25,250 nt of DNA. It comes from Candidatus Xenobia bacterium (GTDB lineage Bacteria; Vulcanimicrobiota; Xenobia; Xenobiales; QWHO01). How positions within the stretch are numbered: the stretch's first letter is position 1; every line of letters begins with the position of its first letter. Location: the NCBI GenBank assembly GCA_045863235.1, contig BTUM01000104.1, forward strand, positions 1 to 25,250. Direction: 5' to 3'. Below, piece after piece: positions 254 through 18,461 of the stretch. The notes under the pieces are model-generated. The model saw only the letters and a program-made list of their open reading frames with translations, ran no database searches and had not been told where the DNA came from. The translations under genes and the position numbers were made by a program.

Positions 254-1528
254 TCAGGCTTTCTTCCTGACCCGGATGCCGCCCACGACCACCGAGTCCG
301 AGCGCTCGGCCACCACCTGGGTTCGAGGCGGGGGCAGCTTGTCCGGATCGGGCAGCTGGTAGAGGTCGATCGAGTCCTTCATGGTGACCATGACGCGGCC
401 GCTCGGGTCGAGCCAGGGCGGGCTGGCCCCCTTCGGAAGCTCGGCCCAGTACATCACCTCGCCCGTGTCGGGGTGGAGACGCTCGAGGCGGTTATCCTTC
501 AGGCTCAGGAGACCTCTCGGAGTGGAGCGGATCGAGTGGCTGTCACTGGCCACCGCCCACCGGAGCTGGCCCTCGGGGGTCAGGCACACCAGTCGCCCGA
601 AGTTCGGCACGATCAGGTCGCCCCGCTCGGTCAGGTGCATCCCGTACTGGTTGCGCTCGCCCTCGATGGGCTGCTCCCAGCGCGTTGCCCCGGTAGCCGG
701 ATCCAGTCCCTGGATGGAGTTCTCGGTGCTGAGATAGAGCACCGACTCGTCCGCCGCGAGCATCGTCTCACCCAGCTTCTTGTCGAACGTCCGGGTCCAG
801 CGCGGCTCGAACTTACCGTCCTTCACGGTCACCCCGTGCACCGACTTGTCGTCCACGTAGGTGGCCTCGGCCCGCGCGTTGGCGCGCAGAGAGCGGCCGT
901 AGCTCTTGAACTCGATGCTGTCGGAGACCTGGCCGGTGGTGTCGTCCACGCAGATCAGCCTGCCGCTGGCCTTGAGGATGTGCGTTCCCGGGGCCACCTC
1001 GATCGGGTTGTCGAACACGGCTCCCGGTTGACGCCACAGGATCTCCCCGGTTTCAGGCGAGATGGCGATGTGATAGTGCTTCTTGTTCGTCCACGATTCC
1101 GAGGACAAGAGCGTGATTTTGGACGAGCCGTACGACAGGTGGTGGCCCTGGTTGGGCATCTTGAAACCCCACTCGAGCTTGCCCTGGCCGTCCAGTCCGG
1201 CCACGCGCCCGTCGTCGAACTGAACCACGGTGATCCGCTCGCCTGGGAAGACGTTGCTGGGCCGGGGGCCGGGCGGGAGGTCCTTCTCCCACTCCTTCTT
1301 GCCGGTGGCCATGTTGAACCGGATCATCTTGTCGGGCCGGTACAGCACCATGGCGCCGTTGGTCGAGCACTGCCTGAAATGGTCGACGTCCGGCTTCTCG
1401 GCACTCCAGACCCGGTCGGGCGCGACGGCCTCGGCCCGAGCGAAAAGCGTGTTGCGGGCCTCGTCGAAGGAAACGGAAGCCTGGGGAGGCGTCCCTGAGA
1501 ACCGCGCTCCTGGAGTTGAAATGATCAT
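254..1528 (-). CDS. PQQ-binding-like beta-propeller repeat protein (BamB-like repeats), no signal peptide
   Basis: Recurrent propeller-blade motifs: ATGKKEWEK, GQGKLEWGF, PETGEILWRQ, DPATGATRWEQ, TPEGQLRWAV, HPDTGEVMYW. I place the start at ATG 1528 (MIISTPG), preceded by GGGAGGGAC and a TATGCT hexamer. The ORF track start is 1570. Confidence 0.8.
   Translation of the reverse strand: MIISTPGARFSGTPPQASVSFDEARNTLFARAEAVAPDRVWSAEKPDVDHFRQCSTNGAMVLYRPDKMIRFNMATGKKEWEKDLPPGPRPSNVFPGERITVVQFDDGRVAGLDGQGKLEWGFKMPNQGHHLSYGSSKITLLSSESWTNKKHYHIAISPETGEILWRQPGAVFDNPIEVAPGTHILKASGRLICVDDTTGQVSDSIEFKSYGRSLRANARAEATYVDDKSVHGVTVKDGKFEPRWTRTFDKKLGETMLAADESVLYLSTENSIQGLDPATGATRWEQPIEGERNQYGMHLTERGDLIVPNFGRLVCLTPEGQLRWAVASDSHSIRSTPRGLLSLKDNRLERLHPDTGEVMYWAELPKGASPPWLDPSGRVMVTMKDSIDLYQLPDPDKLPPPRTQVVAERSDSVVVGGIRVRKKA
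257..292 (-). other. C-terminal motif VVVGGIRVRKKA (candidate sorting/export tag, copy 1)
   Basis: Last 12 codons of the propeller protein, after a Pro-rich linker (LPDPDKLPPPR). Matches the C-terminal motif at 9128-9160. Confidence 0.6.
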
Positions 1529-1759
1529 GTCCCTCCCAGCATACCCGAGCGGGCTGAAAGGAACATGCACCTCGACCGGGACTTCGATGAACCCCTTCCA
1601 GGGATTTCAAACGGTGCGGGTGGCCATCCGGACGGCTGCGAGGTCTGGTTCGTTAGCGTCCATTCCGGGCCTGCGGACCCGACGTCTCGGGTTGATCACC
1701 TTCCGAGCCTTCTTCGGGCGGCTTGAGGAAAACCTGGCGCGCTTTGCGACAGGGGGAAG

Positions 1760-4700
1760 ATGAAACGCGCCTGCCTTCTGCTCATGCTTTGCGCCCTCGG
1801 CTGCCAGCAGCCCACCGTCACGCCCCCTTCGGAGAGGAACCGTGCCGTCCAGGAGACCGCTCCCCGCGCCGTGCTCCGGCCGGTCGCGCGCGAGGTGGCG
1901 CCCCTCAGCCTGACGGCCTCGGACGGCACGGGCCTGAAGCTGAGGGCGCTGGAGGCGCGCACGGTCATCCAGGGACCACTGGCCTTCACGGAGCTGCACA
2001 TGACGTTCGTCAATCCCGAGAACCGCGTGCTCGAGGGGCGCTTCAACGTGACGCTCCCGCCGGGCGCGGCCGTCAGCCGTCTGGCGATGCGGCTCGAGAA
2101 GGGCTGGCAGGAGGCGGAGGTGGTGGAGCTGCAGGCGGCCCGCCAGGCCTACGAGGATTTCCTCCACCGGCGTCAGGACCCGGCGCTGCTCGAGAAGCAG
2201 GCGGGCAACGAGTTCCAGGCGCGCATCTTCCCGATCCCGGCGCACGGGCAGAAAGAGATCATCGTGTCCTACTCGCAGGAGCTGCTCGGGAATCAGCCCT
2301 ACGTGCTGCCGCTGGCCGGCCTCCCGCGTATGGACCGGCTGAACGTGACGGCCCACGTGGGCGTCGCCAAGCCCGACAAGCTGACGCTGGGCCGCGACAA
2401 CGAAGCCCCCGCGGGCGACTACGTGGTGGAGCAGGGGACTTCTCCGGACGGGCTGACCTACGGAAAGCTGGCCCTGGTGAAGGTGCGCCCCGAGGTGCCC
2501 CCCGCCCCGATCGCGATGACGGGCCTGATGGTGCTGTTCGACACCAGCGCTTCCCGAGCGGCGGGCTACGAGAAGCAGATCGAGCTGCTGGGCAAGCTGC
2601 TGGCGGACCTCGGGAAGCGCTACGGGGACACGATGCCGGTGCAGGTCGTCTGCTTCGATCAAGAACTCCAGTCGGTCTACACCGGCCCCCTGCGCGACTT
2701 CTCCCCCGCGCCGCTGCGCGCCCGTCGCCCGCTGGGAGCGACCGATCTGGCCAGCGCGCTGAAGTGGGCGGGGGAGAACTCGCAGGGCTATCCGCGCCTG
2801 GTGGTGATGACGGACGGTATCTCGACCGCCGGCCTGGAGAAGCTGACAGCACCGGGCTTCGAGCGCGTGGACGCGGTGCTGGTCGGGGGCATCCGCGAGG
2901 CCTCCGGGTTGGCGACTCTTGGCGGCGTGGTGCTGGACGGCGACCAGCCCCTCGAGGAGGTCGCCCGCCGGCTCAGCCAGGCCGTGGAGTCGGAGGTTCC
3001 GGTCGAGGTGGAGGGCGCCCTCTGGCGCTGGCCGGAGAAGCTCGACAACGTGCAGCCAGGCGACGAGCGACTGGTCTATTGCGAGCTCAAGGACCCCGCA
3101 CATTCCGTGCGCGTGCGGGTGGGGTCGCGCTCGACCGAGGTGGCCCTGGCGCAGGCCCCGGCGCCGCTTTTGGAGCGCTCGCTGGCGGCTGCGCAGATTG
3201 CGCGGCTGGTGAAGCGGCTGGGGGAGGCTGCCGATGACAAGTCGCGGGAAAGCTTGCGGAACGACATCGTGCAGCTATCGTGCTCTCGTCGCGTGGTGTG
3301 CGACCTGACGGGCCTGCTGGTGCTGGAGACGGAGGCGGACTACGTGCGCTTCAAGATCGACCGCAAGGCGCTGGCCGACGTGCTCACGGTGGGCGACGAG
3401 GGGCTCGAACTGAGGAACCGCGGCGAGGTGGTTGTGCCCGACCGGGTGGCCGTGAAGGAGAAGAAGCAAGAGATGGCGCTCCGGGACGACGGCCAGGGCT
3501 TCGAGACGGACAATCGCCTGGGCGACGGCAATGTCGACCTCACGGCCTCGCCGGCGCTTCCGGGGCGCCCGGCGGTCGCGCGGCCGGGGAGCACGGCGGC
3601 GAACGAATCGAGTTCGGTCGCGTTGAACTGGGACATAGGCGACGGTGATTCCGGAATCTACGTCGCCGGTGAGTACCTCCACGCAGACAACTCCGTCTCG
3701 AGCACGGACTCACCCGCGCGCCTCCCTGCGGCCGCACCCCGCCCGCAGCCACGGAGCGTGAGCAACGAGCTGTCGCGGGAGGAGCCCTGGGACTCCAAGA
3801 ACAGCGCCCCGCCCTACACCGGCAAGATGGAAAAGATCATGCAGCTGATCGCCAGGGGCGAGAAGGAGAAGGCCCTGCAGGACGCCATCGCCTGGCAGTC
3901 CGCCGAGCCTGGCGACGTCGTGGCCCTGATGGCCCTGGGCGAGGCCCTGGAGGCCCTGGGTCGCAAGGACGAGGCCGCGCGCGTCTACGGCTCCCTGATC
4001 GACCTCTACCCGGGCCGCGCCGACCTGCGCCGCTACGCCGGCAACCGCCTGGACCGCCTGAAGGCCGACGCCCTGGCGCTCGACACCTACGAGAAGGCCG
4101 CCGCCCAGCGCCCCGACCACCCCTCGAGCCACCGCCTGCTCGCCTACGCGCGCCTGCGCCAGAAGGATTCCAGGGGCGCCTTCGAGGCCGTGGAGGCCGG
4201 TCTGGCCCGGAGCTACCCGGGCGGCCGTTTCGCCGCCTACGACCGCATCCTGAAGGAAGACCTGGGAATCCTGGGCGCCGCCTGGATCGCCCACGACCCG
4301 AAGGTGAAAGCCGACGTGCTGGAGCGCCTGAAGAAGTCCGGCGCCAGGCTGGCCGAGAAGCCCTCCACGCGCTGCGTGCTGACCTGGGAGACCGACGCCA
4401 ACGACGTAGACTTCCACATCCAGGACGCGAAAGGCGGCCACGCCTGGTACAGCAACCTGAATCTGCCCTCCGGCGGCGAGCTCTTCGCCGACGTCACCAC
4501 CGGCTATGGCCCCGAGTGCTTCGCCATTCCAGGAGTGCCCTCAGCCGCCCCATACCGCCTGCAAGCCCACTACTACTCCCGCGGCCCGATGGGCTACGGC
4601 ATGGGCAAGCTCGAGATCGTCAAGCACGACGGCAAGGGCGGGCTGACCTTCGAGCAACGCCCGTTCCTGGTGATGAACGACCAGGCTTACGTGGATTTGG

Positions 4701-4792
4701 GGACACTAACGCGCTATCCTGCTGATGCAGAACCGGCTGTGGTGTCGAAGCAGAGCTCCGCCACCACAGGGGGTTTGCGGCCGGACTTCTAG
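1760..4792 (+). CDS. VIT-domain lipoprotein: VIT + vWA-like + TPR + C-terminal DUF2135/YfaP-like domain
   Basis: Lipobox LCALG-C after MKR and a hydrophobic stretch. VIT motifs (AFTELHMTFVNPENRVLEGRF...LPPGAAVSRLAM, RQDPALLE, FQARIFPIP). MIDAS-like FDTSAS and VMTDG. TPR-like helices. DUF2135-like LTWETDANDVDFHI and DVTTGYGPE. Purine-rich GGGGGAAG directly upstream. Confidence 0.85.
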   Translation: MKRACLLLMLCALGCQQPTVTPPSERNRAVQETAPRAVLRPVAREVAPLSLTASDGTGLKLRALEARTVIQGPLAFTELHMTFVNPENRVLEGRFNVTLPPGAAVSRLAMRLEKGWQEAEVVELQAARQAYEDFLHRRQDPALLEKQAGNEFQARIFPIPAHGQKEIIVSYSQELLGNQPYVLPLAGLPRMDRLNVTAHVGVAKPDKLTLGRDNEAPAGDYVVEQGTSPDGLTYGKLALVKVRPEVPPAPIAMTGLMVLFDTSASRAAGYEKQIELLGKLLADLGKRYGDTMPVQVVCFDQELQSVYTGPLRDFSPAPLRARRPLGATDLASALKWAGENSQGYPRLVVMTDGISTAGLEKLTAPGFERVDAVLVGGIREASGLATLGGVVLDGDQPLEEVARRLSQAVESEVPVEVEGALWRWPEKLDNVQPGDERLVYCELKDPAHSVRVRVGSRSTEVALAQAPAPLLERSLAAAQIARLVKRLGEAADDKSRESLRNDIVQLSCSRRVVCDLTGLLVLETEADYVRFKIDRKALADVLTVGDEGLELRNRGEVVVPDRVAVKEKKQEMALRDDGQGFETDNRLGDGNVDLTASPALPGRPAVARPGSTAANESSSVALNWDIGDGDSGIYVAGEYLHADNSVSSTDSPARLPAAAPRPQPRSVSNELSREEPWDSKNSAPPYTGKMEKIMQLIARGEKEKALQDAIAWQSAEPGDVVALMALGEALEALGRKDEAARVYGSLIDLYPGRADLRRYAGNRLDRLKADALALDTYEKAAAQRPDHPSSHRLLAYARLRQKDSRGAFEAVEAGLARSYPGGRFAAYDRILKEDLGILGAAWIAHDPKVKADVLERLKKSGARLAEKPSTRCVLTWETDANDVDFHIQDAKGGHAWYSNLNLPSGGELFADVTTGYGPECFAIPGVPSAAPYRLQAHYYSRGPMGYGMGKLEIVKHDGKGGLTFEQRPFLVMNDQAYVDLGTLTRYPADAEPAVVSKQSSATTGGLRPDF
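4738..4792. repeat. Partial copy of the palindromic repeat at 15096-15180, overlapping the VIT gene stop codon
   Basis: 4756-4792 CTCCGCCACCACA-GGGGGTTTGCGGCCGGACTTCTAG versus 15142-15179 CTCCGACACCACATGGGGGTTTGCGGCCGGACTTCTAG (one mismatch, one indel). Inner stem TGTGGTGTCGAAG / CTCCGCCACCACA. Confidence 0.85.
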
Positions 4793-4799
4793 ACTCTAG

Positions 4800-5074
4800 T
4801 TGCGGGTTGACGATCCAGGGAGTCCCGAGCTGCCTCGCAAGGTTCATGACCTGTGGCTCCAGGTCGTGCGCTGCTATCAGAAAGCCAGCCCTTCGCCTGG
4901 CCGATCGCCCGGCGCCGCTGGACCTTCCAACGCGCAGTTCGACCTGCTGGCCGGCCCCGAGGAAGGGATGACCCAGGAGCAGCAGGGCTAGCGCCTGCTG
5001 GTCACCAGGGGCAATGTCTCCGGGATGCTCTAGAGTCCGCCCTCAACCGGCTGGCCGACGCCCTGCGGGCGTAG
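4800..5074 (+). pseudogene. MarR-family transcriptional regulator pseudogene
   Basis: Reads HDLWLQVVRCYQK...SNAQFDLLAGPEEGMTQEQQG*RLLVTRGNVSGML*, a MarR helix-turn-helix broken by TAG 4989-4991 and TAG 5031-5033. The final helix LESALNRLADALRA* is in another frame, and the wing region is missing. Confidence 0.75.
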
Positions 5075-5109
5075 GAGGTTGACGGCGGGCCGTCCCAAGC
5101 TTCAAACGG

Positions 5110-5694
5110 TCAAGACCCCCCGGCGGCCAGCCCCTCCAGCCACTCCCGCACGTTTCGGGTCCAGTCGGCATCATCGCCCGGCAACGACAGCCGGCTGGCC
5201 ACCTCTGACGCTTTCAGTGGGAGAAAGGAGCTTCGGTCAGACCTCACATAGGTGCCGCCCTGCAGCAAGAAAATTGCCAGCTGCCTCAGGTCGTAGCGCC
5301 AGACCTCCCGAATTCCCAAAGCCCCGAAAATCGACAGTTTGTCGAGGGCGGATCGGGTAACTTCGACCTCCACGACCAGGTCAGGCTCGTTAAGGCCTTG
5401 AAACGAGTAGGACGAGTCCGGCTCGGCTCCCTTCTGCAATTCGACGCGCTTTTGCGTGGCCGAGCCCAGCAAGCGAACTCCAATACCGAAATAGACGCAG
5501 GCACTCAGAACGATCTCCTTGATTCGTTCAGCGGCGTTCTCGTGCTCGGGCGAAGGGCTCATGATCTCCAAGACTCCACTGTCGTAAGTCAAGCGAGGGG
5601 CGCTCTGGTCCCCATGATCGGCCAGAATCCTCTCGTAAGTATCCCAACTGCACGAGGGAAACACGATTCGTTGCTCGGGCTCAAGTTCCAGCAC
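5110..5694 (-). CDS. Uma2 (DUF820) family PD-(D/E)XK putative endonuclease
   Basis: SWDTYERIL...RLTYDSGVLEIMSPSPEHE, GAEPDSSY, PDLVVEVE, DKLSIFGALGIREVWRYD. GTG start. Confidence 0.9.
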   Translation of the reverse strand: MLELEPEQRIVFPSCSWDTYERILADHGDQSAPRLTYDSGVLEIMSPSPEHENAAERIKEIVLSACVYFGIGVRLLGSATQKRVELQKGAEPDSSYSFQGLNEPDLVVEVEVTRSALDKLSIFGALGIREVWRYDLRQLAIFLLQGGTYVRSDRSSFLPLKASEVASRLSLPGDDADWTRNVREWLEGLAAGGS

Positions 5695-5991
5695 CTTGAT
5701 TCTATTCGCCGAAGAAGGCGGTCTCGCCCTCCGGCCCCCGATTGAAGCCAGCTCTCGGCAGCTCCGGCCAACAAGTGATCGCGTGCTTCGTGGGCTTCAG
5801 CCCGAACGCTTGGCCGCGCGCCCCGGCGCCGATACCGCGGCACAGCCAACAAACCCGGCTGTCCCGATCACGGATGAAGGTTCCCAGGGCTCGTCCCTTT
5901 GCGAAACCTGGCCACCATGAAGCGAATCGGGTCGGCGAGAGCGACTCGAGGCCTGGCGGGGTTCTTTCGGAAGGCCAAGAACTCTTGCCGC

Positions 5992-6525
5992 ATGGAGTAT
6001 GGCGGCCGGAGCGTCAGCTACTGGGAGCGCATGCTGGCCTGGCCTCGCGCATCCGTGAGTCGATTTGCGGTGCGCGCGCTCTCGGCGCTGGGTCGCCCGG
6101 GAGCTGAGGCTCTGGTGCGCTCGGCCCGACCCACGCCCGAGGCGGCCTGGGCGCTTTGCCGGACCGAGCAAACGGACCTGATCGCGGCCTGTCCCCTGGC
6201 CCGCCTGATGACCTCTCCCGGGACGGGGCCAGACCCGGTTCGTCGTTTGCGCCAGTCCAGACGCCTGCTGCCCGCCTTCTTCTGGGCAGCCCAGTTGGAG
6301 GAGCGCGACACCTCCGCCCTGGTGGATATCCTGCGCCACGCCGGCACCTCGGCGGTTGTGCAAGCCGCGGCCTGGGCTCTGGGGCGAATCGGCCGCCTGG
6401 TCCTGCCCGAGTGCGCCGACGCCTGCCGACAGGCGGCCGCGTCCACGCGCAGGCGGCTTTGCCGCCTCTTCGCCACGGCACTCTCCAAAGCACGGCGATC
6501 GGCGGGCACTGATACCTTCCCTTGA
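5992..6525 (+). CDS. HEAT/PBS-lyase-repeat-like hypothetical protein
   Basis: Helical repeat motifs VSRFAVRALSALGRPGAEAL and VVQAAAWALGRIG. Start placed at ATG 5992 (MEYGGRSVSYW); the ORF is open from 5899. Confidence 0.5.
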   Translation: MEYGGRSVSYWERMLAWPRASVSRFAVRALSALGRPGAEALVRSARPTPEAAWALCRTEQTDLIAACPLARLMTSPGTGPDPVRRLRQSRRLLPAFFWAAQLEERDTSALVDILRHAGTSAVVQAAAWALGRIGRLVLPECADACRQAAASTRRRLCRLFATALSKARRSAGTDTFP

Positions 6526-6595
6526 TCCTGAGATCGAGTTCGACCCGTTCACACGATTTGAGATCCGCGCCAGCTCTCCGGGCCATGCTGCCTCC

Positions 6596-9181
6596 ATGCA
6601 GATCATTCCGACCATTGCTCCCAATGGCTTACCCTTTCGCCCCCTGCCGGCGTCCGAGGAAGCTCCCGCCCTCCCCCGCGACCAGTTTGCCCCCGGCCGC
6701 AGCCTCGAGCCGCGGCCCCAGCCGCCTCCCGACCGGGCCCGCCAGGCGCTCCCCGAGATCCTCCGCCTCGAGCGGCAGATCGAGCGGGGCGAGCTCGGGG
6801 GCGAGGCCTACCAGCAGGCCGCCCGGCGAATCGCCGAGTGGTCCGCCGCGGGCCAGGATCCGGTCCTCTCGCGGGTGGCTTCCCTGGCTCTTCGTCGCTT
6901 CTTTCAGTGGCCCGACAGGGTGTTGGACGACCAGCTCAAGCGCGGCGTTCGCCAGGCCGGGGAGGAGCGGTGCCGGCAACTCGGGCGCGGAAAGCAGCCT
7001 TCTCAGGACGACCTGAGGGCCATCCTGGACGCGACCCGGACCGAGAGGGCCAGCCCGGCGATGGTGCGAGAGCTGCTCTTTGCCACCCATCAGCTCTACG
7101 CCCAGTCCGAGCACCCTCTGGCCGACCTTGCCCTGAGCGTGCTCCGGGCCTGGCTGCGACGGGGCGACTTCCGCGTGCTTGACGGGCAAGAAGACGATCT
7201 GGCTCGGACCGTGCGCGAGCGTGCCCCGCTGGTCGACCGGCACGGCACCGTGCGTCTCAGACCTCTTCCGCCCCCTCCCCGGCCTTCTCCCGAGGCCGCT
7301 CGCAGGATGGACAGCTTGCTCCGAGAGCGCGACTACGTCGCCAGCTTCGACGCCCTGGCGGCCGAGCACCCAACGCTCGCGGCCGAGGTCGCCGCCGCTC
7401 TGGCGGACCAGACCGACCGCGCAGCCATGCGCGTGATGGGCGGCATTCTTTCCCGGGGAACCGCCGCTGCCGCCGAGCACTTCAAGGCGCATCGCTCGCG
7501 GCTGGCGCGCACCACCGAGCGCCTGGAAGAGGCCCACGACCTGGGCTGGAACTCCTCCAGCTGGGACCACATCTCCGCCCTCTACCGAGGTCTCGTGGAG
7601 CGCTTTCCCGAGCTTGTGACCCCCGAGCTTCTGGGCTACCAGTTGCTCCCCCTGGTGACCCGTCACATCAACTGCGAGCGCGAGTCGAGCCAGATCCTGG
7701 CCGAGCGGATGACTCCCGAGGGCGCTCCTCTGGTCATGGCGCAGATGCTGCGAGAAATCACCAGCGGCAGGGTCCTCGGCGAAGACCATTGGAAGGTGGT
7801 GCACGCCTGCATCGACCGGGGCTGGAAGTGCGGTCCCGTCGAACGCGAGTGGCTGGCCAGCCTGGGCTACCTTCCCCTCTCATACCAGGTCCTCCACTCC
7901 CACGCGGGGTTCGTCGGAGCCGCGGTCGCTCTCTTCAAGCTGGGGGCCCTCGATCAGGTGGAGCTGCCCGGACTCGACGGCCGGCCCCGGCCCTTCCGCG
8001 AGGCTTTCCTCGAGCGGCTGCTGCACGACTCCAAGCTGGAGGTCTACCATCTCTACCGCCCTCAGAGTCACGGCCTGGCCCGGCTCTACGACACCATCCT
8101 CACCGATGACCAGGTTGTCGGCATGCTGCTCGATCGCGTGGAGAGAGCCGGGGTCGCGGTGGAGCAGATGGAGCGTCCCGATCAGCTCGCCTACGCCTTG
8201 CTCGGGTCGATCCAGTTGTCAGAGTCCCGGCTTGAGCGCTTCCGCCGGGTGAACGAGAAGGAGCTCTATCGCGACCATTCATCCTACGTTTTCATCGAGA
8301 CGGTGGACACCTTCCGGCAATCCCGCCAGCAGGCGATGCGCGAGATTGTGACCGCCCCCGCCAGCACCCTGGACGAGGTGCTGGAGGCGGCCCGCGAGCA
8401 CCTGCGTTGCGACGCCTTCCGCCGGAGACAGAGCGTCGTGGATCCGGTCGAGGAGCCCTTCGTCGCGCGCGTCCTGGCCTCGGGCCAGCTCGACGCGCAG
8501 GTGAAGCGTCTCTCCGAGGGCTTCCTGACGGCGGCCCGGGACGCCACCTCGCTCGAGGACCTCGACCTCGACCTGCAGGTCGATGCCTGTCTCGCGCTCG
8601 CGCTCGCGGCGGTCCGTCCCGAGCTTCACTTCGACCTCTTGCAGCGCTACGATCAGGCCATCGCAGGCAAGCAGGCGGGCGCTCTGGTCGAGCCCCTGCG
8701 CAACCACGCGGACGAACGGTCGGCCAGCGCGATCGCTCTCCTGGCTCATTGTGGCGACAACCACGCCCTGCGAGGGCGCATCATGCAGGACTCTTGCTCG
8801 GCCGACCCGCGGGTCCTGGACGCCTGGGAGGAGTCCTTGCAGGGCCAGGCAGGGTGGGTGGACGAGGTCCTCAGTTTGGAGGAGGGAAGCGTCCAGGCCT
8901 ACATCTTCGTGGCCTCGGGGAACCACGAAGAGCGCTGGCAAGCCTGGACGAGGCTGTCCGACAGGCTCAGGGAGCATCCGGCCACTCTCGAGGCCGCCCG
9001 CGAGTGGGCGGCTTTCCGGGCCGCCGGCAAGTCGGTCGAGCAAGCCGACCGGCTCGCCCTGGCGCGCTCGGTCCTGGGCGGCCAGGCTCAGGAGCCCCCG
9101 GCTCCGGTCGCGGTGGATGAGCACAAGGTCGTGGTGGGCGGCGTCCGCCTGAAAGTCCGCCAGCGGCTCACTCGACCTTGA
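6596..9181 (+). CDS. Large (~860 aa) alpha-helical hypothetical protein, Pro-rich N-terminus, no recognised domain
   Basis: Long ORF with GC3-rich codon usage. Start placed at ATG 6596 (MQIIPTIAPNG), because the upstream part of the ORF overlaps the HEAT-like gene. The 3' end overlaps the convergent lipoprotein gene by 14 bp. Confidence 0.8.
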   Translation: MQIIPTIAPNGLPFRPLPASEEAPALPRDQFAPGRSLEPRPQPPPDRARQALPEILRLERQIERGELGGEAYQQAARRIAEWSAAGQDPVLSRVASLALRRFFQWPDRVLDDQLKRGVRQAGEERCRQLGRGKQPSQDDLRAILDATRTERASPAMVRELLFATHQLYAQSEHPLADLALSVLRAWLRRGDFRVLDGQEDDLARTVRERAPLVDRHGTVRLRPLPPPPRPSPEAARRMDSLLRERDYVASFDALAAEHPTLAAEVAAALADQTDRAAMRVMGGILSRGTAAAAEHFKAHRSRLARTTERLEEAHDLGWNSSSWDHISALYRGLVERFPELVTPELLGYQLLPLVTRHINCERESSQILAERMTPEGAPLVMAQMLREITSGRVLGEDHWKVVHACIDRGWKCGPVEREWLASLGYLPLSYQVLHSHAGFVGAAVALFKLGALDQVELPGLDGRPRPFREAFLERLLHDSKLEVYHLYRPQSHGLARLYDTILTDDQVVGMLLDRVERAGVAVEQMERPDQLAYALLGSIQLSESRLERFRRVNEKELYRDHSSYVFIETVDTFRQSRQQAMREIVTAPASTLDEVLEAAREHLRCDAFRRRQSVVDPVEEPFVARVLASGQLDAQVKRLSEGFLTAARDATSLEDLDLDLQVDACLALALAAVRPELHFDLLQRYDQAIAGKQAGALVEPLRNHADERSASAIALLAHCGDNHALRGRIMQDSCSADPRVLDAWEESLQGQAGWVDEVLSLEEGSVQAYIFVASGNHEERWQAWTRLSDRLREHPATLEAAREWAAFRAAGKSVEQADRLALARSVLGGQAQEPPAPVAVDEHKVVVGGVRLKVRQRLTRP
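9128..9160 (+). other. C-terminal motif VVVGGVRLKVR (candidate sorting/export tag, copy 2)
   Basis: Follows a Pro-rich linker (QAQEPPAPVAVDEHK). Matches the motif at 257-292. Confidence 0.6.
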
Positions 9182-12100
9182 AGATCAGGGTGGAGGCTGT
9201 TCCCCCGCTCAGATTCTTCACCTCGATGGGGCCGGTCTGGGCATTGGGGGGAACCGTGGTGGTGATTTCTTCGTCGCTCACTACGGTATAACTCAGCTTC
9301 GACACCTGTCCGCCGAAGAGGATTTCCCCGAAGAAACCCGGATTCGAAACCGGGCCCGGGGAACCGGTCAGAGTCGCCGCCAGAAAACCGGTGCCCTGGA
9401 TCGTGATCGGGGTGCCCGGCGCGCCGGAGGTCGGACTGAACGAGGTGACGGTCGGCCCGACCACCCTGAACGGGTTGTTGCTCGAGTTGACGGTGACACC
9501 GCCCGTGCTCACGTTGAGGTTGCCGGTTCCTGCTCCGAATGGAAGCTGGAAAGTGATGGTTGAGCCGTTGGTCGACCGGCTGAACTTGGTGATGTTGGAG
9601 GCGCCCAGATTGATCTGAGTGACCCCGAGCAGGTTCCCCACGGTCGCGGTCAAGGTGATCGTCTCGAAGTAGGGTGAGGTGCTCGGACTTGCGATGAAGG
9701 CGGGAGGAGTCAGGGTGAAGTCCTGGGTGGACACGTCCTGGCCGGCTGGGAACGAAACCGTGACCGGCCCGGTGGTGGCAGTGGCCGGCACGTTGACCTG
9801 CAGGGTCTGCGCGCCCGGCGGTGGAGCCACGTTGACCGGCCCGTTCCCGATCAGGACCTGGGTGGCTCCATCGAAGGTGTTCGCGCCCGTGGCCGTGAGG
9901 GTGACCTGGGTCCCGATCGGGCCCTGGCTCGGAGCGAAGCCGAAAGTCGGCAAGGTAGGCGTGAAGTTCTGGGTGGAGACCGCGTTGATTTTGGGGTAGA
10001 CCACCGTCAGCTTGCCGGCCACCGCTCCGGCTGGAACGTTGACAACCAGCTGCTGGCCGTCGTTGCTGGTGATGGTTGGCTGTGGGGCTCCTGCGAACAG
10101 AACGCTGGTTGCGCCCAGGAAGTTGCCGCTGGTGGCCGTCAGGGTGATGGGAGTGCCCACGAGCCCCGAGGTGGGGGCGAAGTTGAAGGTCGGCGGGTTC
10201 ACCGTGAAAATCGCCCGGGAGGTGCCTGTTCCGGTCGGGTTGGTGACCGAGACGGGACCCGTCGCGTTCGCGTTCGGGGGCACCGAGGCCAGGATGGTGC
10301 GATCGTCCTGGATGCTGAAGGTCCCCTCCGTCAGCGGAGAAGGGGCTGGGGACGGCGCCAGAGTCAGCGGAACCCCGTTGAAGGCCACCTGGGTTGCCGT
10401 CAGAAAGCCCAGCCCGGGGATCGTCACCTGTGTGCCCGGTGGTCCCAGGGCGGGCGAGGGAGCGTGCACGGCAGGCTTGCCATCGAAGATGAAGCTCTGG
10501 CTCGAGCTGCCGCGCCCGAGTGGAGTGACCACCGTGATCAGCCCGGATTCGACATTCGGAGGCAGACTGACCTGGATGGTCGTCCCGTCGGCCGAGGGCT
10601 CAAAGCCCTCCACCGCAACGCCCCCGACCAGGAGCGTGCAACCCTGGAGAAAGTACGTTCCTGAGACCGTCAGGTTGGTGCCGGCGCCGCCGAACGGAGG
10701 GCTGAAGCCCGTCACCGTGGGCGCGCCGATCAGGTTGCCCGGGGGGGTGGGCGTCACGCTCGGGGACGGGAACGGGATGGGCGTCGGAAAGGGCGAGGGG
10801 ACCGGGCTCGCCGGGGGGATGAGGACCGAGCCGGGCACCTTGGGCGGATTGGGCTGAAAGCTCAGGCCCATGGTCAGGTTGCCGGCGCCGCCCACGCCGG
10901 GCGTATAGACCTGGGTAGTTGGTGCCTGCGGGGTGGCAGTGGCAACCGAGCCGTCCGAGACGGCCGAATTGACCAGGGTGAAGCCCGACGGAGCCGATTG
11001 GAGCTGGGTGAACACATTCGCCTGGTCGAGCGTCGCGTTCTGGCTGTTGGTGTTCGGGTCATAGCCGGTGACGGTGAGCAGCGACTGATTCAGCCCCACT
11101 CCGCCGGCCAGGTGCAGGGGAGAGGAACCGGGCAGCGGGCTCGAGCCCAGCGTGAAAGTCTGGCCCGATGGGCTCGGTGATGGGGTTGTGAGCAAAGCTC
11201 CAAAGAACGAAGGCGAGCTGCCGGCCGTGGGGGCGGTGCCTTGAGTCAGGGCTTGAACGGGGATGCTGGGGGCCGAGCGAATCTCCAGGCTCTCCGAGAT
11301 CCAGGACTCCACTCGAACCTGGTAGACGGTTCCCGGATTGAGGCCGGTGACGACCGCCGAAGTCGTCGTGCTCATCGTGGTAATCGGCGGATTGAAGCCG
11401 TCCGAGCAGATCACCTTGTAGGCCCCGGCCGGACCCCCGTCGCCGTCGACGGCTGCATTCCAGCTCACCGAGAGCTGGGTGCTCTGAACGTCGCTGATGG
11501 TGACCCCGGTGGGAGCGTCGAATCGATTGTCGTTCATCACGACCACCTGCATGGCGTCGGACTGGGAGATGTCGAGCAGGGGGCTGATGCGGCCGCTCCG
11601 ATCGCTGAAGGGAAAGCCATAGGCGTCAGACAGGTTGTAGAAGATGGCGGCATAGGGGTTGTACTGACCGTCGTCAGGCGTCGGGCGGCAAAGCGAGAAG
11701 GGCAGCAGCACGGGAAAATTCGCATACCACACGCTGGAGTCGTTGGGTGCCACACGCGAGTTCACATACCCGAACTGGAGCGCGCTGACGAAGTCTCCCA
11801 CGATGGTGGCATAGATGCTGTTCTTGGTAGCCGGCTGCAGGCTCATCGGGGCCGGCACGGCCCATGAGGTCGCGGCCGCGCTGTAGATGTTGAAGTCGAG
11901 CTGGTTGGCCGGGAGCGCCAGGTAGATCGGAAGATTGGCCGGCAGCGGCGTGGGGTTGGTGCTCTGGGGGGCCAGGCCGCTGGGAGCGTTGTCCATCGGC
12001 TGAGTCGGGTACATGAAGACCGTGTAACCGCCCGCTCCGTCCGGAGAGATGGCGGCCGCGTAGTCGTAGGTCGTATTCGGGGTTCCGTAGCCCACTCCGC

Positions 12101-13259
12101 CGCTGCCGCTCAGAGCGATGGGCTTGCCGCTCTTCTGGATCTGGGTCATGTAGCCGCTGAAACTGGTGTAGGGAGCGGCCGAGGTGGCCCCCGGGGCGCC
12201 GGCGACGGTTTGCGGTCCGAGCGCTCTCAGGAAGGTGGTCATCGGCTGGGTCTGGGGATTCCAGCCGGGAGCGGCGACCGGCACCGGAGAAGGGCTCGGG
12301 GAGCCCGAGGGGGTCGAGGAGGGGGAGAGGAAGGTGCTCGGCATGTCGGGGCTCAGACTGTTGAGCTGCTTGAGGATGGTCTTGGAGGAAGCGTAGAACG
12401 TGCGCATGTCCTGGACGCTCCCGTTCTGCAGCGCCCGCAGCTCCAGGGGGATGCCGTAGTAGTCGAGCGAGGTCAGGTCGGCTCCGCCCCCTGTTCCCGA
12501 GCCGGGACGATAGGCGAACTCCATCTTGTCGAGGCGAAAGGGCACCTCGGCGGTGGGGTCGGCATCGCTCGTATAGACGATGGGAGTGCCGTAGGAAACC
12601 CACAGCCGGCCGCCATCCACGTGGGCAACCTCAAAGGTGTAGACGGGCAAGTCGCGGTTCTTGTAAGGGGAATGCCACGTCATGGAGGGGCTCGGGTCGA
12701 CCGTTTTCAGGTTGACGGCCGGGACCGTCTGGCCCGAGCCAATCTGCCGGGTGGCCATGCCCGAGTTGCCCGAGAGCACCACCTGGGTGCCGGTCAAGAT
12801 CACGTACACCTCAGTGTCCGGGATGTCGCTGTCATTGACCAGTCGGACTTCCAGCGTGGGATTACCCGCCAGGGCCGTGACCTCGAGGGTCTGGCCGGCA
12901 ACCAGGCTCACGGGGACCTTGGCCCGGGCGTGGAGGTTGCCCTGGCTGTCGCGATAGCTGATTCGAAGCTGCTTGACCGAGACCGGAACATTCACGAGGA
13001 GATGAGAGGCAGCGGCCGCGTGGGTCACGGTGCCGTAGACCTGCACCTCGTTCTCATCAAGACCGGCAAAGTCATACAGGGTGGCCGCGTCCACCGCGCG
13101 CATCTGGCTGAAGTCGTGGCGCACCTGCACACTGGTCGACTCGCCCGGCGGGACGTTGGCCTGGCCCATCGGCCCGCTCGCCCCACCCCCCGAGCAGGCC
13201 GACAGCAGGGCGGCCGCGATGCTCAAAATGACGATAGCGAGGACACTGACTCGAATCAT
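9168..13259 (-). CDS. Surface lipoprotein: GH64/thaumatin-like beta-1,3-glucanase domain + FN3 + six IPT/TIG repeats
   Basis: Lipobox LLSA-C; SD GAGGAG. GH64-like motifs GGRLWVSYG, DKMEFAY...ADLTSLDYYGIPL and YNPYAAIF...AYGFPFSD. FN3 (APTGVTISDVQSTQLSVSW...VTGLNPGTVYQVRV). Six IPT/TIG repeats of the type PTVTxFSPxxGxxGTxxTxxG between about 10730 and 9171. Ser/Pro/Thr linkers. Confidence 0.8.
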   Translation of the reverse strand: MIRVSVLAIVILSIAAALLSACSGGGASGPMGQANVPPGESTSVQVRHDFSQMRAVDAATLYDFAGLDENEVQVYGTVTHAAAASHLLVNVPVSVKQLRISYRDSQGNLHARAKVPVSLVAGQTLEVTALAGNPTLEVRLVNDSDIPDTEVYVILTGTQVVLSGNSGMATRQIGSGQTVPAVNLKTVDPSPSMTWHSPYKNRDLPVYTFEVAHVDGGRLWVSYGTPIVYTSDADPTAEVPFRLDKMEFAYRPGSGTGGGADLTSLDYYGIPLELRALQNGSVQDMRTFYASSKTILKQLNSLSPDMPSTFLSPSSTPSGSPSPSPVPVAAPGWNPQTQPMTTFLRALGPQTVAGAPGATSAAPYTSFSGYMTQIQKSGKPIALSGSGGVGYGTPNTTYDYAAAISPDGAGGYTVFMYPTQPMDNAPSGLAPQSTNPTPLPANLPIYLALPANQLDFNIYSAAATSWAVPAPMSLQPATKNSIYATIVGDFVSALQFGYVNSRVAPNDSSVWYANFPVLLPFSLCRPTPDDGQYNPYAAIFYNLSDAYGFPFSDRSGRISPLLDISQSDAMQVVVMNDNRFDAPTGVTISDVQSTQLSVSWNAAVDGDGGPAGAYKVICSDGFNPPITTMSTTTSAVVTGLNPGTVYQVRVESWISESLEIRSAPSIPVQALTQGTAPTAGSSPSFFGALLTTPSPSPSGQTFTLGSSPLPGSSPLHLAGGVGLNQSLLTVTGYDPNTNSQNATLDQANVFTQLQSAPSGFTLVNSAVSDGSVATATPQAPTTQVYTPGVGGAGNLTMGLSFQPNPPKVPGSVLIPPASPVPSPFPTPIPFPSPSVTPTPPGNLIGAPTVTGFSPPFGGAGTNLTVSGTYFLQGCTLLVGGVAVEGFEPSADGTTIQVSLPPNVESGLITVVTPLGRGSSSQSFIFDGKPAVHAPSPALGPPGTQVTIPGLGFLTATQVAFNGVPLTLAPSPAPSPLTEGTFSIQDDRTILASVPPNANATGPVSVTNPTGTGTSRAIFTVNPPTFNFAPTSGLVGTPITLTATSGNFLGATSVLFAGAPQPTITSNDGQQLVVNVPAGAVAGKLTVVYPKINAVSTQNFTPTLPTFGFAPSQGPIGTQVTLTATGANTFDGATQVLIGNGPVNVAPPPGAQTLQVNVPATATTGPVTVSFPAGQDVSTQDFTLTPPAFIASPSTSPYFETITLTATVGNLLGVTQINLGASNITKFSRSTNGSTITFQLPFGAGTGNLNVSTGGVTVNSSNNPFRVVGPTVTSFSPTSGAPGTPITIQGTGFLAATLTGSPGPVSNPGFFGEILFGGQVSKLSYTVVSDEEITTTVPPNAQTGPIEVKNLSGGTASTLIFKVE

Positions 13260-13391: not shown

Positions 13392-15035
13392 ATGAAGGCA
13401 AAGAGCACCGGAGCGCTCACCCCCGAGGCGCATCAGCGCCAGGACAGCCTGTATCAATCCAATCCAAAGTATGACGTCGTGATCGTGGGCACGGGCATGG
13501 CCGCCATCAGCGTCGCTGCCCTGCTCGCCAAAGCCGGGTGGCGGGTGTGCATGCTCGAGGCTCACGACCTTCCAGGCGGCTACGTCCACTCGTTTCGCAT
13601 GGGCGACTTCCATTTCTGCGCCCAGATTCACTACATCTGGGGCTGCGGACCCGGCGAGAAAGTGACCCGGCTGCTCGAGAAGCTCGGGCTCAGCCAGGAC
13701 ATCCTCTTTGAGAAGCTCGACCCGGACGGCTACGATCACGTCATCTTACCCGACCGAAAGCGCGTGGCCATCCCCTGTGGCTATGACCGGTTGGCCGCCA
13801 ACATCGAAGCCGCCTACCCGGGCCAGGGCGAGAGCGTGCGTCGGTTCACCCGCATCCTCGACCGCCTGAGCGTCGAGGTGGCCCAACTGCCCGACACCAT
13901 CCGCTGGTGGCACGTTCCCACTCTGGGGTGGCGCTTTCGGACGCTGATCCGCTACCATCGCAAGACCCTGCAGCAGGTCTTCGACGAGTGCGGTCTGAGC
14001 CGGGAGGCCCGGGCCGTGCTGAGCGCCAACTCGGGCGACTACATGTGCCCGCCTCGCGATCTGTCGGTGCTGGCCTACAACGGCCTGTTTTCCGGCTACA
14101 ACCGGGGCGCCTACTACCCCCGGCGCCACTTCAAGTATCTCATCGACCGCCTGATGGAGCTCATCACCTCCCATGAGGGCTGTCACGTCTACTACGAGAC
14201 CGAGGTCACCGGGTTTGAGGTCCGGGGCGACCGCATGGAGGGCGTCGTGACCTCTGACGGCAAGGTCTTTCGAGCCCCCACCATCGTATGCAACGCCGAC
14301 CCGCAGAAGATGTCCGCCCTCATCGGCCGCGAGAAGTTCCCCGGTTCCTGGCGAAAACCGCTCGAGTACGACTACTCCTGGACCGCTCTGACCGTCTACC
14401 TGGGCCTGCGCGGCCTGGACCTGCGCGACTATGGCTTCGGGCGCCACAACACCTGGCACCTGGAGCAGTGGGATCTGAACCAGACCTGGGATGAGGCCAT
14501 GAACCAGGACTGGAGCAAGCCCTGGCTCTTCATGGCCACCCCCACCCTGCACACCCCCGAGGGGGGCACCTGCCCCCCCGACACCCAGATCCTCGAGCTG
14601 GCCACCGGGGCCAGCTACGACTTCTTTCGCCAGCTCCACGACAGCGACTATAAGGCCTACGTGCGCAAGAAGAACGAGGTCCAGAACCGGCTGATCGACC
14701 TGGTGGAGCAGCACCACGTGAGCGATCTGCGCAAGCACATCGTGCTGCACGTGGCCGGCTCGCCCACCACCAACGAGGATTATTGCCGGGCGCCGCGCGG
14801 GCACGCCTACGGCCAGCACCTGACTCCCGCCAACCTCGGGCCCGGCCGATTGCGCTCCAAGACCCCCTGGAGGAACTTCTTCTGGTGCAACGCCGCCAGC
14901 GGCTATCCGGGCGTGAACGGCACCGTGGGGACCGGCATGCAGCTCTACATGCAGCTGACCGGGGACCGCTTCTTCGATCCACGCCAGACCCCCGACACCG
15001 AGACCCTGCTCCGGCACCTGAGGAGCCAGGGCTAG
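13392..15035 (+). CDS. NAD(P)/FAD-dependent oxidoreductase, phytoene desaturase / retinol saturase-like family
   Basis: YDVVIVGTGMAA...LAKAGWRVCMLEAHDLPGGYVHSF, IVCNADP, GSPTTNEDY...PRGHAYG, and C-terminal KTPWRNFF...GYPGVNG. AGGA upstream of the ATG. Confidence 0.85.
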   Translation: MKAKSTGALTPEAHQRQDSLYQSNPKYDVVIVGTGMAAISVAALLAKAGWRVCMLEAHDLPGGYVHSFRMGDFHFCAQIHYIWGCGPGEKVTRLLEKLGLSQDILFEKLDPDGYDHVILPDRKRVAIPCGYDRLAANIEAAYPGQGESVRRFTRILDRLSVEVAQLPDTIRWWHVPTLGWRFRTLIRYHRKTLQQVFDECGLSREARAVLSANSGDYMCPPRDLSVLAYNGLFSGYNRGAYYPRRHFKYLIDRLMELITSHEGCHVYYETEVTGFEVRGDRMEGVVTSDGKVFRAPTIVCNADPQKMSALIGREKFPGSWRKPLEYDYSWTALTVYLGLRGLDLRDYGFGRHNTWHLEQWDLNQTWDEAMNQDWSKPWLFMATPTLHTPEGGTCPPDTQILELATGASYDFFRQLHDSDYKAYVRKKNEVQNRLIDLVEQHHVSDLRKHIVLHVAGSPTTNEDYCRAPRGHAYGQHLTPANLGPGRLRSKTPWRNFFWCNAASGYPGVNGTVGTGMQLYMQLTGDRFFDPRQTPDTETLLRHLRSQG

Positions 15036-15037
15036 GA

Positions 15038-15078
15038 GCGCAGCCGGAAACCCCCTTGACACAGTTTTCCGGCTGCGC
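15038..15078. repeat. 13-bp perfect inverted repeat directly after the oxidoreductase stop (possible terminator or stabilising hairpin)
   Basis: GCGCAGCCGGAAA (15038-15050) pairs with TTTCCGGCTGCGC (15066-15078). The 15-nt loop contains TTGACA. There is no U-tract, so terminator function is not established. Confidence 0.7.
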
Positions 15079-15081
15079 GAC

Positions 15082-15128
15082 GCCCAACATATTGTGCTAG
15101 AAGTCCGGCCGCCTACAACATCTTGTGG
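15082..15128. promoter_or_regulatory. Tandem NrdR-box-like sites
   Basis: GCCCAACATATTGTGC (15082-15097) and CTACAACATCTTGTGG (15113-15128) both fit the core of the acaCwAtATaTwGtgt consensus. Start-to-start spacing is 31 bp. Confidence 0.45.
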
Positions 15129-15180
15129 TGGCGGAGGTTCCCTCCGACACCACATGGGGGTTTGCGGCCGGACTTCTAGC
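15096..15180. repeat. 85-bp nested palindromic element (REP/REPIN- or MITE-like)
   Basis: 17-bp perfect terminal inverted repeat GCTAGAAGTCCGGCCGC (15096-15112) / GCGGCCGGACTTCTAGC (15164-15180). Inner 12/13 stem TGTGGTGGCGGAG (15124-15136) / CTCCGACACCACA (15142-15154). Partial second copy at 4738-4792. Confidence 0.85.
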
Positions 15181-15239
15181 CGACCCCCCCCGAGAGGCAC
15201 ACCGAGGGTGCTCGGCAACCCGAGACCCTGGAGGCGGGG

Positions 15240-15902: not shown

Positions 15903-15947
15903 CGCACGGGGTTTTTCTCCACCTTCTCTGTGGACCCCTGGGAGGAG

Positions 15948-18147: not shown

Positions 18148-18200
18148 CCCCCCCGCTTCGGCACGGGTTCGGGCAGACCTAGGGCCCGGACCTTGTCGCC

Positions 18201-18372
18201 CGCGGAGCTGACCAAACTGTGCCCCCCGCGGAGCTGACACAAACTGTGCCACCCCCAGAAGTGACACATGTGCCCCCCGCGGAGCTGACCCAAGCTGTGC
18301 CACGCCCAGGACTGACGCGTGTGCCACTCGCGGAGCTGACCCAAACTGTGCCACCCCCAGAGCTGACGCAAG
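18201..18372. repeat. Imperfect tandem repeat with alternating 27/24-bp units (51-bp higher-order period)
   Basis: Units begin at 18205 (26 nt), 18231 (27), 18258 (24), 18282 (27), 18309 (24), 18333 (27) and 18360 (partial). Consensus GAGCTGACNCAAACTGTGCCACCCCCA / GxxxTGACNCRTGTGCCxCxCGCG. Confidence 0.9.
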
Positions 18373-18461
18373 ACCGGCCCCGCGAAAGTCGCAGCACAAT
18401 GCCAGACAATCTGTTGATCTTCGAGGACTTTTGCATCACTGTGCTAGAAGAGGCGCACCCC

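Follow-up and report, generated by a model that had tools for sequence, protein, structure and literature searches.

Why should two proteins with unrelated bodies end in the same short peptide? The question is raised by a window of 25,250 nucleotides (the whole stretch of DNA analysed here) from an uncultured bacterium of the phylum Vulcanimicrobiota, in which P0001 and P0002 carry a common C-terminal tail (Table 1). A preliminary description, made from the sequence alone, took this tail for a new sorting or export signal. We find that interpretation partly supported, and we tentatively favour, at close to an even chance, a reading in which the tail is a module on ~200 largely co-regulated proteins, likely the cargo of a flagellum-derived type III machine that apparently has neither filament nor motor, and serves as a sorting handle for one shared bacterial partner.

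Table 1. Features of the two tagged genes in the window.
Feature	Position	Strand	Description	Basis
Passenger P0001	254..1528	-	424 aa, BamB/PQQ-like beta-propeller, without signal peptide	ORF and structure prediction
Tail module of P0001	257..322	-	T403-A424, predicted hairpin apart from the closed propeller	
Motif of P0001	257-292	-	VVVGGIRVRKKA	
Leader of P0001	1439..1528	-	Disordered N-terminal residues 1-30, M-I-I-S-T-P..., pLDDT <50	
-10 box of P0001	1538..1543	-	TATGCT, 9 nt ahead of the ATG	
Regulon site of P0001	1554..1570	-	Degenerate direct repeat of TTTCAG-N5-TTTCAG, 24.6 bits including the -10 box	
Passenger P0002	6596..9181	+	861 aa, without Pfam family	
Leader of P0002	6596..6685	+	N-terminal, M-Q-I-I-P-T..., Pro/Ala-rich, D-Q-F-A-P motif	Sequence; class statistics
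Tail module of P0002	9098..9163	+	P835-Q856, then five residues and the stop	
Motif of P0002	9128-9160	+	VVVGGVRLKVR	

A C-terminal module on unrelated proteins

Both open reading frames and both motifs were confirmed, as was the unrelatedness of the bodies: BLASTP between the two proteins recovers the tail (18 residues, 44%, E 0.58), one weaker stretch (E 2.3) and nothing else. The VVV codons are GTG GTC GTG in P0001 and GTC GTG GTG in P0002, bearing out conservation at the protein level. P0001 belongs to a tagged family of 22 members, and P0002, which has one tagged paralogue, shows only a weak likeness to HEAT-type helical repeats (TM ≤0.32). Contigs from wastewater and sludge RNA libraries overlap parts of both genes and are uninformative on transcription or start site.

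Alignment gives an 18-residue module, about [VI]-x-E-x-x-[DG]-x-V-x-[VI]-G-G-V-x-[VL]-[RK]-[RK]-R, followed by 0-25 variable residues before the stop. As anticipated for a tag on unrelated passengers, it is present on 197 of the ~7,000 predicted genes of this genome, in 112 unrelated families. The VVVGG motif singled out at first is indeed conserved, but the module is longer than that motif and lies internally in eight proteins, with 32-324 residues after it. At a profile score of at least 20 bits, 181 of the 189 sites in 7,033 predicted genes are C-terminal, against 9.3% expected by position, the profile having been seeded on C-terminal matches. A search of 139,084 six-frame ORFs with the pattern originally put forward gave 231 matches, of which 102 lie at most 14 residues from the stop; a tail HMM at ≥10 bits finds 165 sites in the proteome, and none once the sequences are reversed; and 42 of the 44 matches at E≤0.001 among 1.84 billion outside proteins are C-terminal. 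The tail shared by the two window proteins is not due to chance.

AlphaFold places two strands in the tail of P0001 (residues 412-415 and 418-421, pLDDT 55-66), in agreement with the hairpin-like fold suggested previously, and closes the propeller without them. The tail is thus predicted to be a small beta-hairpin, probably too small to be stable alone, and is probably attached to the passenger body through a flexible linker. Tails average 4.1 K/R versus 1.9 D/E, with an N+Q content of 6% and unconstrained final residues, the alignment holds no hydrophobic helix, and tandem double copies occur in P0007 and P0010. The basic end had been counted as part of the layout; since one genus (g6) has lost it, with tails that are neutral or acidic, the beta core is probably what matters. 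Because the tail tolerates C-terminal extensions, an internal position and loss of charge, a strand-pairing site fits better than a cleavage site or a lipid anchor.

Origin from a DNA repeat element was ruled out, tail codons matching the codon use of the bodies. It is very improbable that the tail lacks a common reader and is a structural relic (a fragment of a propeller blade, say, or a single PAAR repeat) that gene shuffling has dispersed. Propellers are the commonest tail passengers in distant genomes and one tail matches the Pfam PAAR_motif at E 0.12, but the propeller closes without its tail. Comparison of the profile with a PAAR protein gives a probability of 0.3%, and among 52 genomes PAAR is found in one, while the four with gpD/VgrG-like hub genes are not tail-rich; on these grounds the PAAR repeat was rejected. 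Selection is implied by the persistence of the tail, in ordinary codons, across 112 families.

Distribution

The tail recurs in five further families of the phylum Vulcanimicrobiota (Eremiobacterota), and the sequence searches support restriction to this lineage. A GTDB-wide DNA pattern scan returned 61 matches, of which 11, all from four genomes of the same genus, are strong in-frame C-terminal tails and the other 50 were counted as noise. The 75 weak matches in genome G084 are mostly one spurious short repeat, together with one short tail-like frame. No tail was found in 11 further genomes at E≤1e-6, nor in 301 Chloroflexota genomes sampled in a scan without positive control; one internal copy lies inside a Caldilineaceae protein. 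The expectation of an undescribed module held in the catalogues searched: two tails against NCBIfam, 90 tails against Pfam, and the profile against PDB sequences and the ESM Atlas gave no usable match. Neither the titles listed in the literature on the motif nor the literature on secretion in this phylum, mostly open-access, yielded a description of the tail. The tail is therefore neither confined to two proteins, nor lacking in C-terminal bias, nor a domain described in those catalogues.

Passengers, leader and regulon

An N-terminal hydrophobic stretch, scored by a hydropathy rule, is present in 0 of 197 tagged proteins versus 1,518 of 6,608 other genes, and the absence of signal peptides noted for the two window proteins extends to the whole set. 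The passengers include propellers, helical orphans and membrane hairpins, as well as CUB and F5/8 domains; 17 propellers and 4 MAM proteins are among the 129 scanned, and in 49 of the 197 a hydrophobic stretch rich in Gly and Ala lies outside the tail, in many cases in a small helical protein. Enzyme families account for 1 of the 129 tagged proteins scanned (an HD domain protein) versus 28 of 77 untagged regulon proteins scanned.

Tagged proteins have in common a non-cleaved, disordered N-terminal leader, rich in Ser, Pro, Thr and Ala and poor in acidic residues. A leader profile built from untagged regulon genes alone gives tagged genes a median of +3.2 bits (n=120) and leaderless non-regulon genes one of -3.1 (n=316; p 3e-28). 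A TTTCAG-N5-TTTCAG promoter, found at 381 sites versus 10 in reversed DNA with a profile that, like that of the tail, was seeded on tagged genes, stands upstream of 126 of the 197 tagged and 228 of 6,836 untagged genes, a regulon of ~350 genes. For the remaining 71 tagged genes no site was detected, P0002 included (none above 14 bits upstream). The repeat presumably resembles the HilA box, a likeness that a literature search did not confirm. The preliminary description had overlooked both leader and promoter, as well as the export machine without flagellin described below.

The leader of P0001 is likely an export signal, and leader without tail occurs on about as many co-regulated proteins as leader with tail. 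It is improbable that the tagged proteins remain intracellular as part of a co-regulated programme in which the tail serves as degron, as localisation signal or as an amyloid-type signalling motif. Basic C-termini can act as ClpX degrons, and the Caldilineaceae protein harbours a tail copy; against this, the last residues are unconstrained, MAM, CUB and F5/8 are extracellular domain types, and endonuclease I, SLT, trehalase and proteases are among the untagged members of the regulon. V-x-V-G looks RHIM-like at a glance, but the RHIM/PP/BASS3 core, defined as G-phi-Q-phi-G (10.1101/2020.01.06.895854), occurs in only 5 of 190 tails, and the low N+Q content also speaks against such a motif.

A probable flagellum-derived export machine

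The genome (8.4 Mb, 97.6% complete, 166 contigs) encodes FlhA, FlhB, FliP, FliO, two FliN, FliM, FliG, FliF, FliH, FliI, FliJ, FlgB, FlgC, FliK and rod proteins, with genes in the fliQ, fliR and fliE positions recognised by synteny only; the export apparatus, ATPase and C-ring that type III substrates call for are thus all represented. Flagellin/FlgL, FlgK, the P-ring protein FlgI and the MotA stator were not found in this assembly; the one MotA/ExbB match is ExbB, adjoining ExbD and TonB. Missing genes could hide, since a second rod locus reaches a contig end; the same genes are also missing in three relatives, 90-97% complete. The machine appears to build no flagellum. A non-flagellar injectisome would call for an SctF needle, a translocon and a secretin of its own. 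Also present is a conserved, triplicated 81-aa helical gene, a candidate subunit with no Pfam or PDB match and a predicted fold of one long helix, not a hairpin. One copy ends the export operon, and a regulon site precedes a copy of this gene; none was found at the main operon promoter.

What links cargo to machine is the leader, one operon gene that shares the regulon site, and the elimination of other routes. Sortase-type CTERM signals combine a motif, a transmembrane helix and a basic tail on Sec-exported proteins, and T9SS cargo carries a Sec signal and an Ig-like CTD of 70-80 aa. Sortase, exosortase and rhombosortase signals were rejected on the missing hydrophobic helix and N-terminal stretch and the lack of an NCBIfam match for two tails, and the T9SS CTD on passengers without Sec-like signal and 90 tails without usable Pfam match. 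A T4SS basic C-terminal signal was likewise discarded: a VirD4-type coupling protein (PF02534) is found in 0 of 5 tail-bearing genomes, R-x7-R-x-R-x-R in 0 of 197 tagged proteins, and tails in g6 are not basic. T6SS/eCIS sheath genes occur in 0 of 5 tail-bearing genomes, this one included. Encapsulin PF04454 (family 1 only) was not found in this genome and is present in one of five, and the cargo core L-x-[IV]-G-S-L is found in 0 of 190 tails.

Phylogenetic profiling fails to tie tail to machine, since the machine is phylum-wide (FliP in 62 of 64 genomes, flagellin in 20 of 64, and some relatives carry a second, flagellin-linked set) and the tail patchy. The same operon for export is retained by relatives in which no tail was detected; this, together with the leader-only co-regulated proteins, makes it improbable that the tail is the export signal it had been supposed to be. 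That it nevertheless directs export by an unrecognised or T1SS/T2SS-like route, the leader being incidental, is distinctly improbable. C-terminal position, unrelated passengers without Sec signals and a T2SS operon in the genome would suit such a route; T2SS cargo, however, normally requires Sec or Tat, the leader is common to tagged and untagged regulon proteins, eight copies are internal, VirD4 was not found, and HlyD (TIGR01843) passes the NCBIfam cut-off in 0 of 21 genomes, with weaker homologues in all 21.

A possible role for the module

Because the machine persists in tail-less relatives, export is likely signalled by the leader, as it is for other type III substrates, with the tail as a further handle for sorting by class. 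Late flagellar substrates are held at their C-termini by chaperones; here the tail would contribute its strands to one of the cell's own chaperones or adaptors, and might queue non-catalytic passengers, both binding and membrane-inserting, separately from hydrolytic enzymes that have the leader alone. The cargo would act on prey or host cells, and some members of Vulcanimicrobiota are proposed to be predators (PMC9259500). Several observations weigh against this reading: no tail reader emerged, neither as a recurrent neighbour of tagged genes nor as an export-operon gene tracking the tail; no P-ring was found and both secretins lie in T2SS and type IV pilus operons, so that no outer-membrane route is evident; 71 tagged genes have no detected site; and one tagged protein has an HD domain.

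With the same cargo and route, the tail could instead act after export, pairing with other tails or a surface scaffold, as dockerins do, which would bring numerous membrane-inserting and binding proteins together in a single coat or prey-contact patch. We regard this as somewhat unlikely, even though the passengers are mainly binding folds and hydrophobic-hairpin proteins, the module seems too small to be stable alone, and double copies exist; no scaffold gene was identified, and net basic charge disfavours self-pairing in this genus.

Returning to the sorting handle, it is possible, if short of probable, that part of Vulcanimicrobiota independently turned the flagellar basal body into a delivery machine, with a new helical filament subunit, the ~350-gene regulon and a two-part address code, in which the leader would give export and the hairpin would sort or assemble ~200 non-catalytic prey- or host-binding proteins. 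Because their signals are not conserved, type III substrates are difficult to predict; here tail, leader and promoter together single out several hundred candidates for secretion in a little-known phylum. If the sorting role is true, a C-terminal module on most non-enzyme type III substrates would amount to a novel mechanism for fixing the class or order of secretion, a problem of long standing. With the 18-residue peptide as bait, its reader should be easy to fish for. The flagellin-less operon is itself a candidate independent transition from flagellum to secretion.

Comparison with known systems

Like LPXTG, PEP-CTERM, GlyGly-CTERM and the T9SS CTD, the tail is a short, lineage-restricted C-terminal module on many unrelated proteins; unlike them, it has 18 residues, with no Sec signal, transmembrane helix, fixed distance from the end, or NCBIfam or Pfam match. 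Chlamydial Incs and T3SS translocators resemble the 49 tagged proteins in which a leader accompanies a Gly/Ala-rich hydrophobic stretch, many of them small and helical, although no tagged passenger matched them in Pfam and, to our knowledge, Incs share no C-terminal tag. Late substrates of the flagellar T3SS likewise combine a disordered N-terminal signal with a C-terminal binding region, recognised by the chaperones FliS, FlgN and FliT, which dock on FlhA-C, and FlhA, FliI, FliH and FliJ are present here. In the flagellar system, however, the C-terminal sites are substrate-specific helices on a few structural proteins, whereas here one beta module is found on ~200 unrelated proteins, and flagellin and FlgK were not found. 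Buchnera and Sneabacter namystus have lost the filament but retain export apparatus and basal body, and effector secretion is proposed for them (10.1101/719211), a reduced flagellar machine without filament, as here. Those are tiny endosymbiont genomes, whereas the present machine resides in a genome of 8.4 Mb, with its large regulon and triplicated helical gene.

Results

The preliminary description had proposed a VVVGG[IV]R[VL][RK] C-terminal tag on two unrelated proteins, and on rereading the window we recover both open reading frames and their motifs at the same places. The two proteins, P0001 and P0002, have the tail in common and nothing else of note, and P0002 matches no Pfam family. 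In the genome of the window, which is contig C104 of G000 (8.36 Mb, 66% GC, 97.6% complete), the search pattern of the preliminary description gave 231 matches in 139,084 six-frame ORFs, 102 of them at most 14 residues from the stop. An iterated profile, with a clean gap in its scores, found 179 C-terminal and 8 internal sites, and a softer profile run on 7,033 genes, predicted with our own dicodon model, tagged 197 proteins in 112 BLAST families, far more than the two proteins first described. C-terminal sites accounted for 181 of the 189 scoring at least 20 bits, against 9.3% expected, with a profile that was itself seeded on C-terminal matches. Two checks are less circular: an HMM made 0 matches in the reversed proteome against 165 in the forward one, and 42 of 44 tail matches among 1.84 billion outside proteins searched were C-terminal. 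Because tail codons follow the usage of the protein body and the last residue is free, the tail is a protein module, as the proposed conservation at the protein level had implied, and an origin as a DNA repeat element is ruled out.

A Pro/Gly/Ser linker leads into the tail, whose residues follow approximately the pattern [VI]-x-E-x-x-[DG]-x-V-x-[VI]-G-G-V-x-[VL]-[RK]-[RK]-R. Searches of PDB sequences, the Atlas, NCBIfam and Pfam, where the best E was 0.12, found no match, in keeping with the proposed candidate undescribed signal. In the AlphaFold model of P0001, the propeller closes without the tail, which forms a separate hairpin at residues 412-415 and 418-421 (pLDDT 55-66), the shape originally predicted. 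From 0 to 25 extra residues are tolerated after the tail, and 8 proteins carry it internally. The regions appended to internal tails are Y-K-S-G-V-A-G-V-Y-N-P-type repeats, F-D-x-N-N-S-type repeats that finish in aromatic and acidic residues, or a stretch rich in Gln and Pro whose end is hydrophobic.

Features of the window and of related loci
Feature	Location	Strand	Description
P0001	window 254-1528	minus	BamB/PQQ-like propeller, tagged
P0001 regulon site and -10 box	window 1538-1570	minus	found with the promoter profile
VIT gene	window 1760-4792	plus	VIT-domain protein with TPRs
End of VIT gene	window 4721-4792		short stretch also present, in three public runs, on numerous contigs unrelated to one another, which suggests a repeat or insertion site
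P0002	window 6596-9181	plus	tagged; weak likeness to helical repeats
1,363-aa protein	window 9168-13259	minus	GH64 beta-1,3-glucanase and fibronectin III matches; its end overlaps the P0002 end
Gene cluster	window 13392-25160		FAD oxidoreductases, radical SAM/SPASM, DegT-type aminotransferase, GNAT, HD protein, ADP-ribosylglycohydrolase; looks biosynthetic
Flagellar-type operon	contig C27 of G000		flgB to flhA
81-aa genes	L025:10990-12054 (G000 C27:55986-57051)		three tandem copies after flhA; longer paralogue next
Second rod locus	contig C74 of G000		with sigma-factor gene cut by contig end
Internal tail	L012:143-2389		C-terminal region appended
Internal tail	G000 C135:61-2361		C-terminal region appended
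Internal tail	G000 C98:439-4347		C-terminal region appended
Internal tail	L288		C-terminal region appended

The reported lack of signal peptides is general, with an N-terminal hydrophobic stretch in 0 of 197 tagged proteins against 23% of other genes (hydropathy rule, starts from our own gene model). The Pfam scan covered 129 of the 197 tagged proteins besides the window's two and assigned no family to 106 of them; the others comprised 17 propellers, 4 MAM proteins, 1 HD protein and 1 sub-threshold DUF885 match. A Gly/Ala-rich hydrophobic stretch lies outside the tail in 49 of the 197, and propellers are the dominant passengers in distant genomes.

Tagged genes often start 6-7 nt downstream of a TANNCT -10 box, itself preceded at 10 nt by a TTTCAG-N5-TTTCAG repeat, whose 11-bp period may resemble that of OmpR/SARP/HilA-type sites. 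The repeat delimits a regulon of about 350 mostly leaderless genes in G000 (381 promoter sites against 10 in reversed DNA) and stands upstream of 126/197 tagged versus 228/6,836 untagged genes; no site was found for P0002. Tagged and untagged regulon proteins begin alike, with M-x-[IV] and then a Pro/Ser/Ala/Thr-rich, acid-poor stretch, the leader, and a leader profile trained on untagged regulon members alone scored tagged genes apart from control genes without the leader (p 3e-28). By our count, enzyme families occur in 28 of 77 untagged members, scanned out of 228 and chosen for genome clustering; enzymes of the untagged regulon include nucleases, phosphatases, proteases, acyltransferases, trehalase and haem peroxidase. 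Since untagged members are often enzymes and tagged passengers almost never are, it is the non-catalytic portion of the regulon that bears the tail. Fifteen further G000 genes (e.g., C31:25902 and C5:178171) encode a family of mostly 620-780-aa proteins whose C-terminal domain relates them to the tagged MAM proteins. The majority carry the leader, without tail or promoter, and leader-bearing proteins therefore reach beyond the regulon.

Among 201 genomes searched of the phylum Vulcanimicrobiota (Eremiobacterota), the tail is abundant in the four others of the window's genus (130-266 candidates), and it occurs also in genera g8 and g9 and in families f4, f11 and f19; of 30 loci examined from these three families, 29 have it at the C-terminus. 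These genomes are kin and not independent. With a broader profile, one further tail appeared in genome G082, and genus g6 (family f3) had C-terminal tails in 20 of 21 loci, 7 of which were training sequences. The layout proposed for the tag thus persists in g6 as a C-terminal module and not in its basic end, which is mostly missing there. No tail was found in genera g2, g3, g4 and g7 or in the searched genomes of families f5, f7-f10, f12-f15, f20 and f21. Outside the phylum, no strong match at a C-terminus came from a scan with the strict DNA pattern, and a search of 301 Chloroflexota genomes yielded none. One Caldilineaceae protein has an internal copy. In two proteins, P0014 (Caldilineaceae by source name) and P0013, a close copy sits in the linker that joins a helical region to one that looks CHAT-like by eye, without a Pfam match; it could reflect transfer, convergence or a tail-mimicking bait, and a search for relatives of this stretch returned none. 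Two records labelled uncultured Burkholderiales (L147, L157, L160 and L177) each contain more than 20 strong tails and group by behaviour with the window's genus, so their labels are probably wrong.

FliP is present in 62 of 64 phylum genomes and flagellin in 20 of 64. The flgB-flhA operon is syntenic in relatives with and without the tail, and in the draft genome G000, flagellin/FlgL, FlgK and FlgI were not found. The single MotA/ExbB match, considered as a stator, is the ExbB of a TonB operon. A conserved 78-96-aa gene follows the operon in five relatives and is triplicated in G000 and in another genome, G046; its 81-aa product, modelled as one long helix and without a Pfam or PDB match, is a candidate filament or needle subunit. 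A regulon site precedes one copy of this gene, and the main export operon has none. VirD4, contractile sheaths, PAAR, gpD/VgrG-like hubs, family 1 encapsulin and HlyD over the cut-off were likewise not found in the draft genome, and its two full secretins sit in T2SS and type IV pilus operons.

Discussion

Collectively, the results establish the tail as a genuine C-terminal module, limited to certain lineages and found in no catalogue searched. The roughly 200 proteins that bear it are candidate cargo of a flagellar export system that lacks the filament. The simplest reading would be a two-part code of N-terminal leader and C-terminal tail. Judging from sequence, the leader would likely drive type III export, because proteins with and without the tail share it and because relatives in which no tail was found keep the machine. 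For the tail itself, a role as a binding handle is likely: extra residues, internal position and loss of charge are all tolerated, which disfavours cleavage, recognition of the carboxylate and lipid anchoring. Of the sorting or export signal first proposed, the binding role would be retained, and the driving of export would pass to the leader. We rank first, tentatively, recognition of the tail before export by a putative chaperone or adaptor; a role in post-export assembly ranks second and seems rather unlikely. Neighbourhood analysis found no partner gene of the tail. Five proteins (L002-L006) carry the FlhA cytoplasmic domain but lack its membrane part, and in two the domain is joined to long helical regions; all five are candidates for possible partners.

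Searches on the motif and on secretion in the phylum turned up no description of the tail. For marine members of the phylum, PMC9259500 proposes that they are predators with a variety of secretion systems; its accessible text does not describe the tail, and that of PMC11484240 mentions neither secretion nor flagella. The tail differs from RHIM/BASS3 in missing its core, as defined in the available part of 10.1101/2020.01.06.895854, and flagellar T3SSs reduced to the basal body are described for Sneabacter and Buchnera in the accessible portion of 10.1101/719211.
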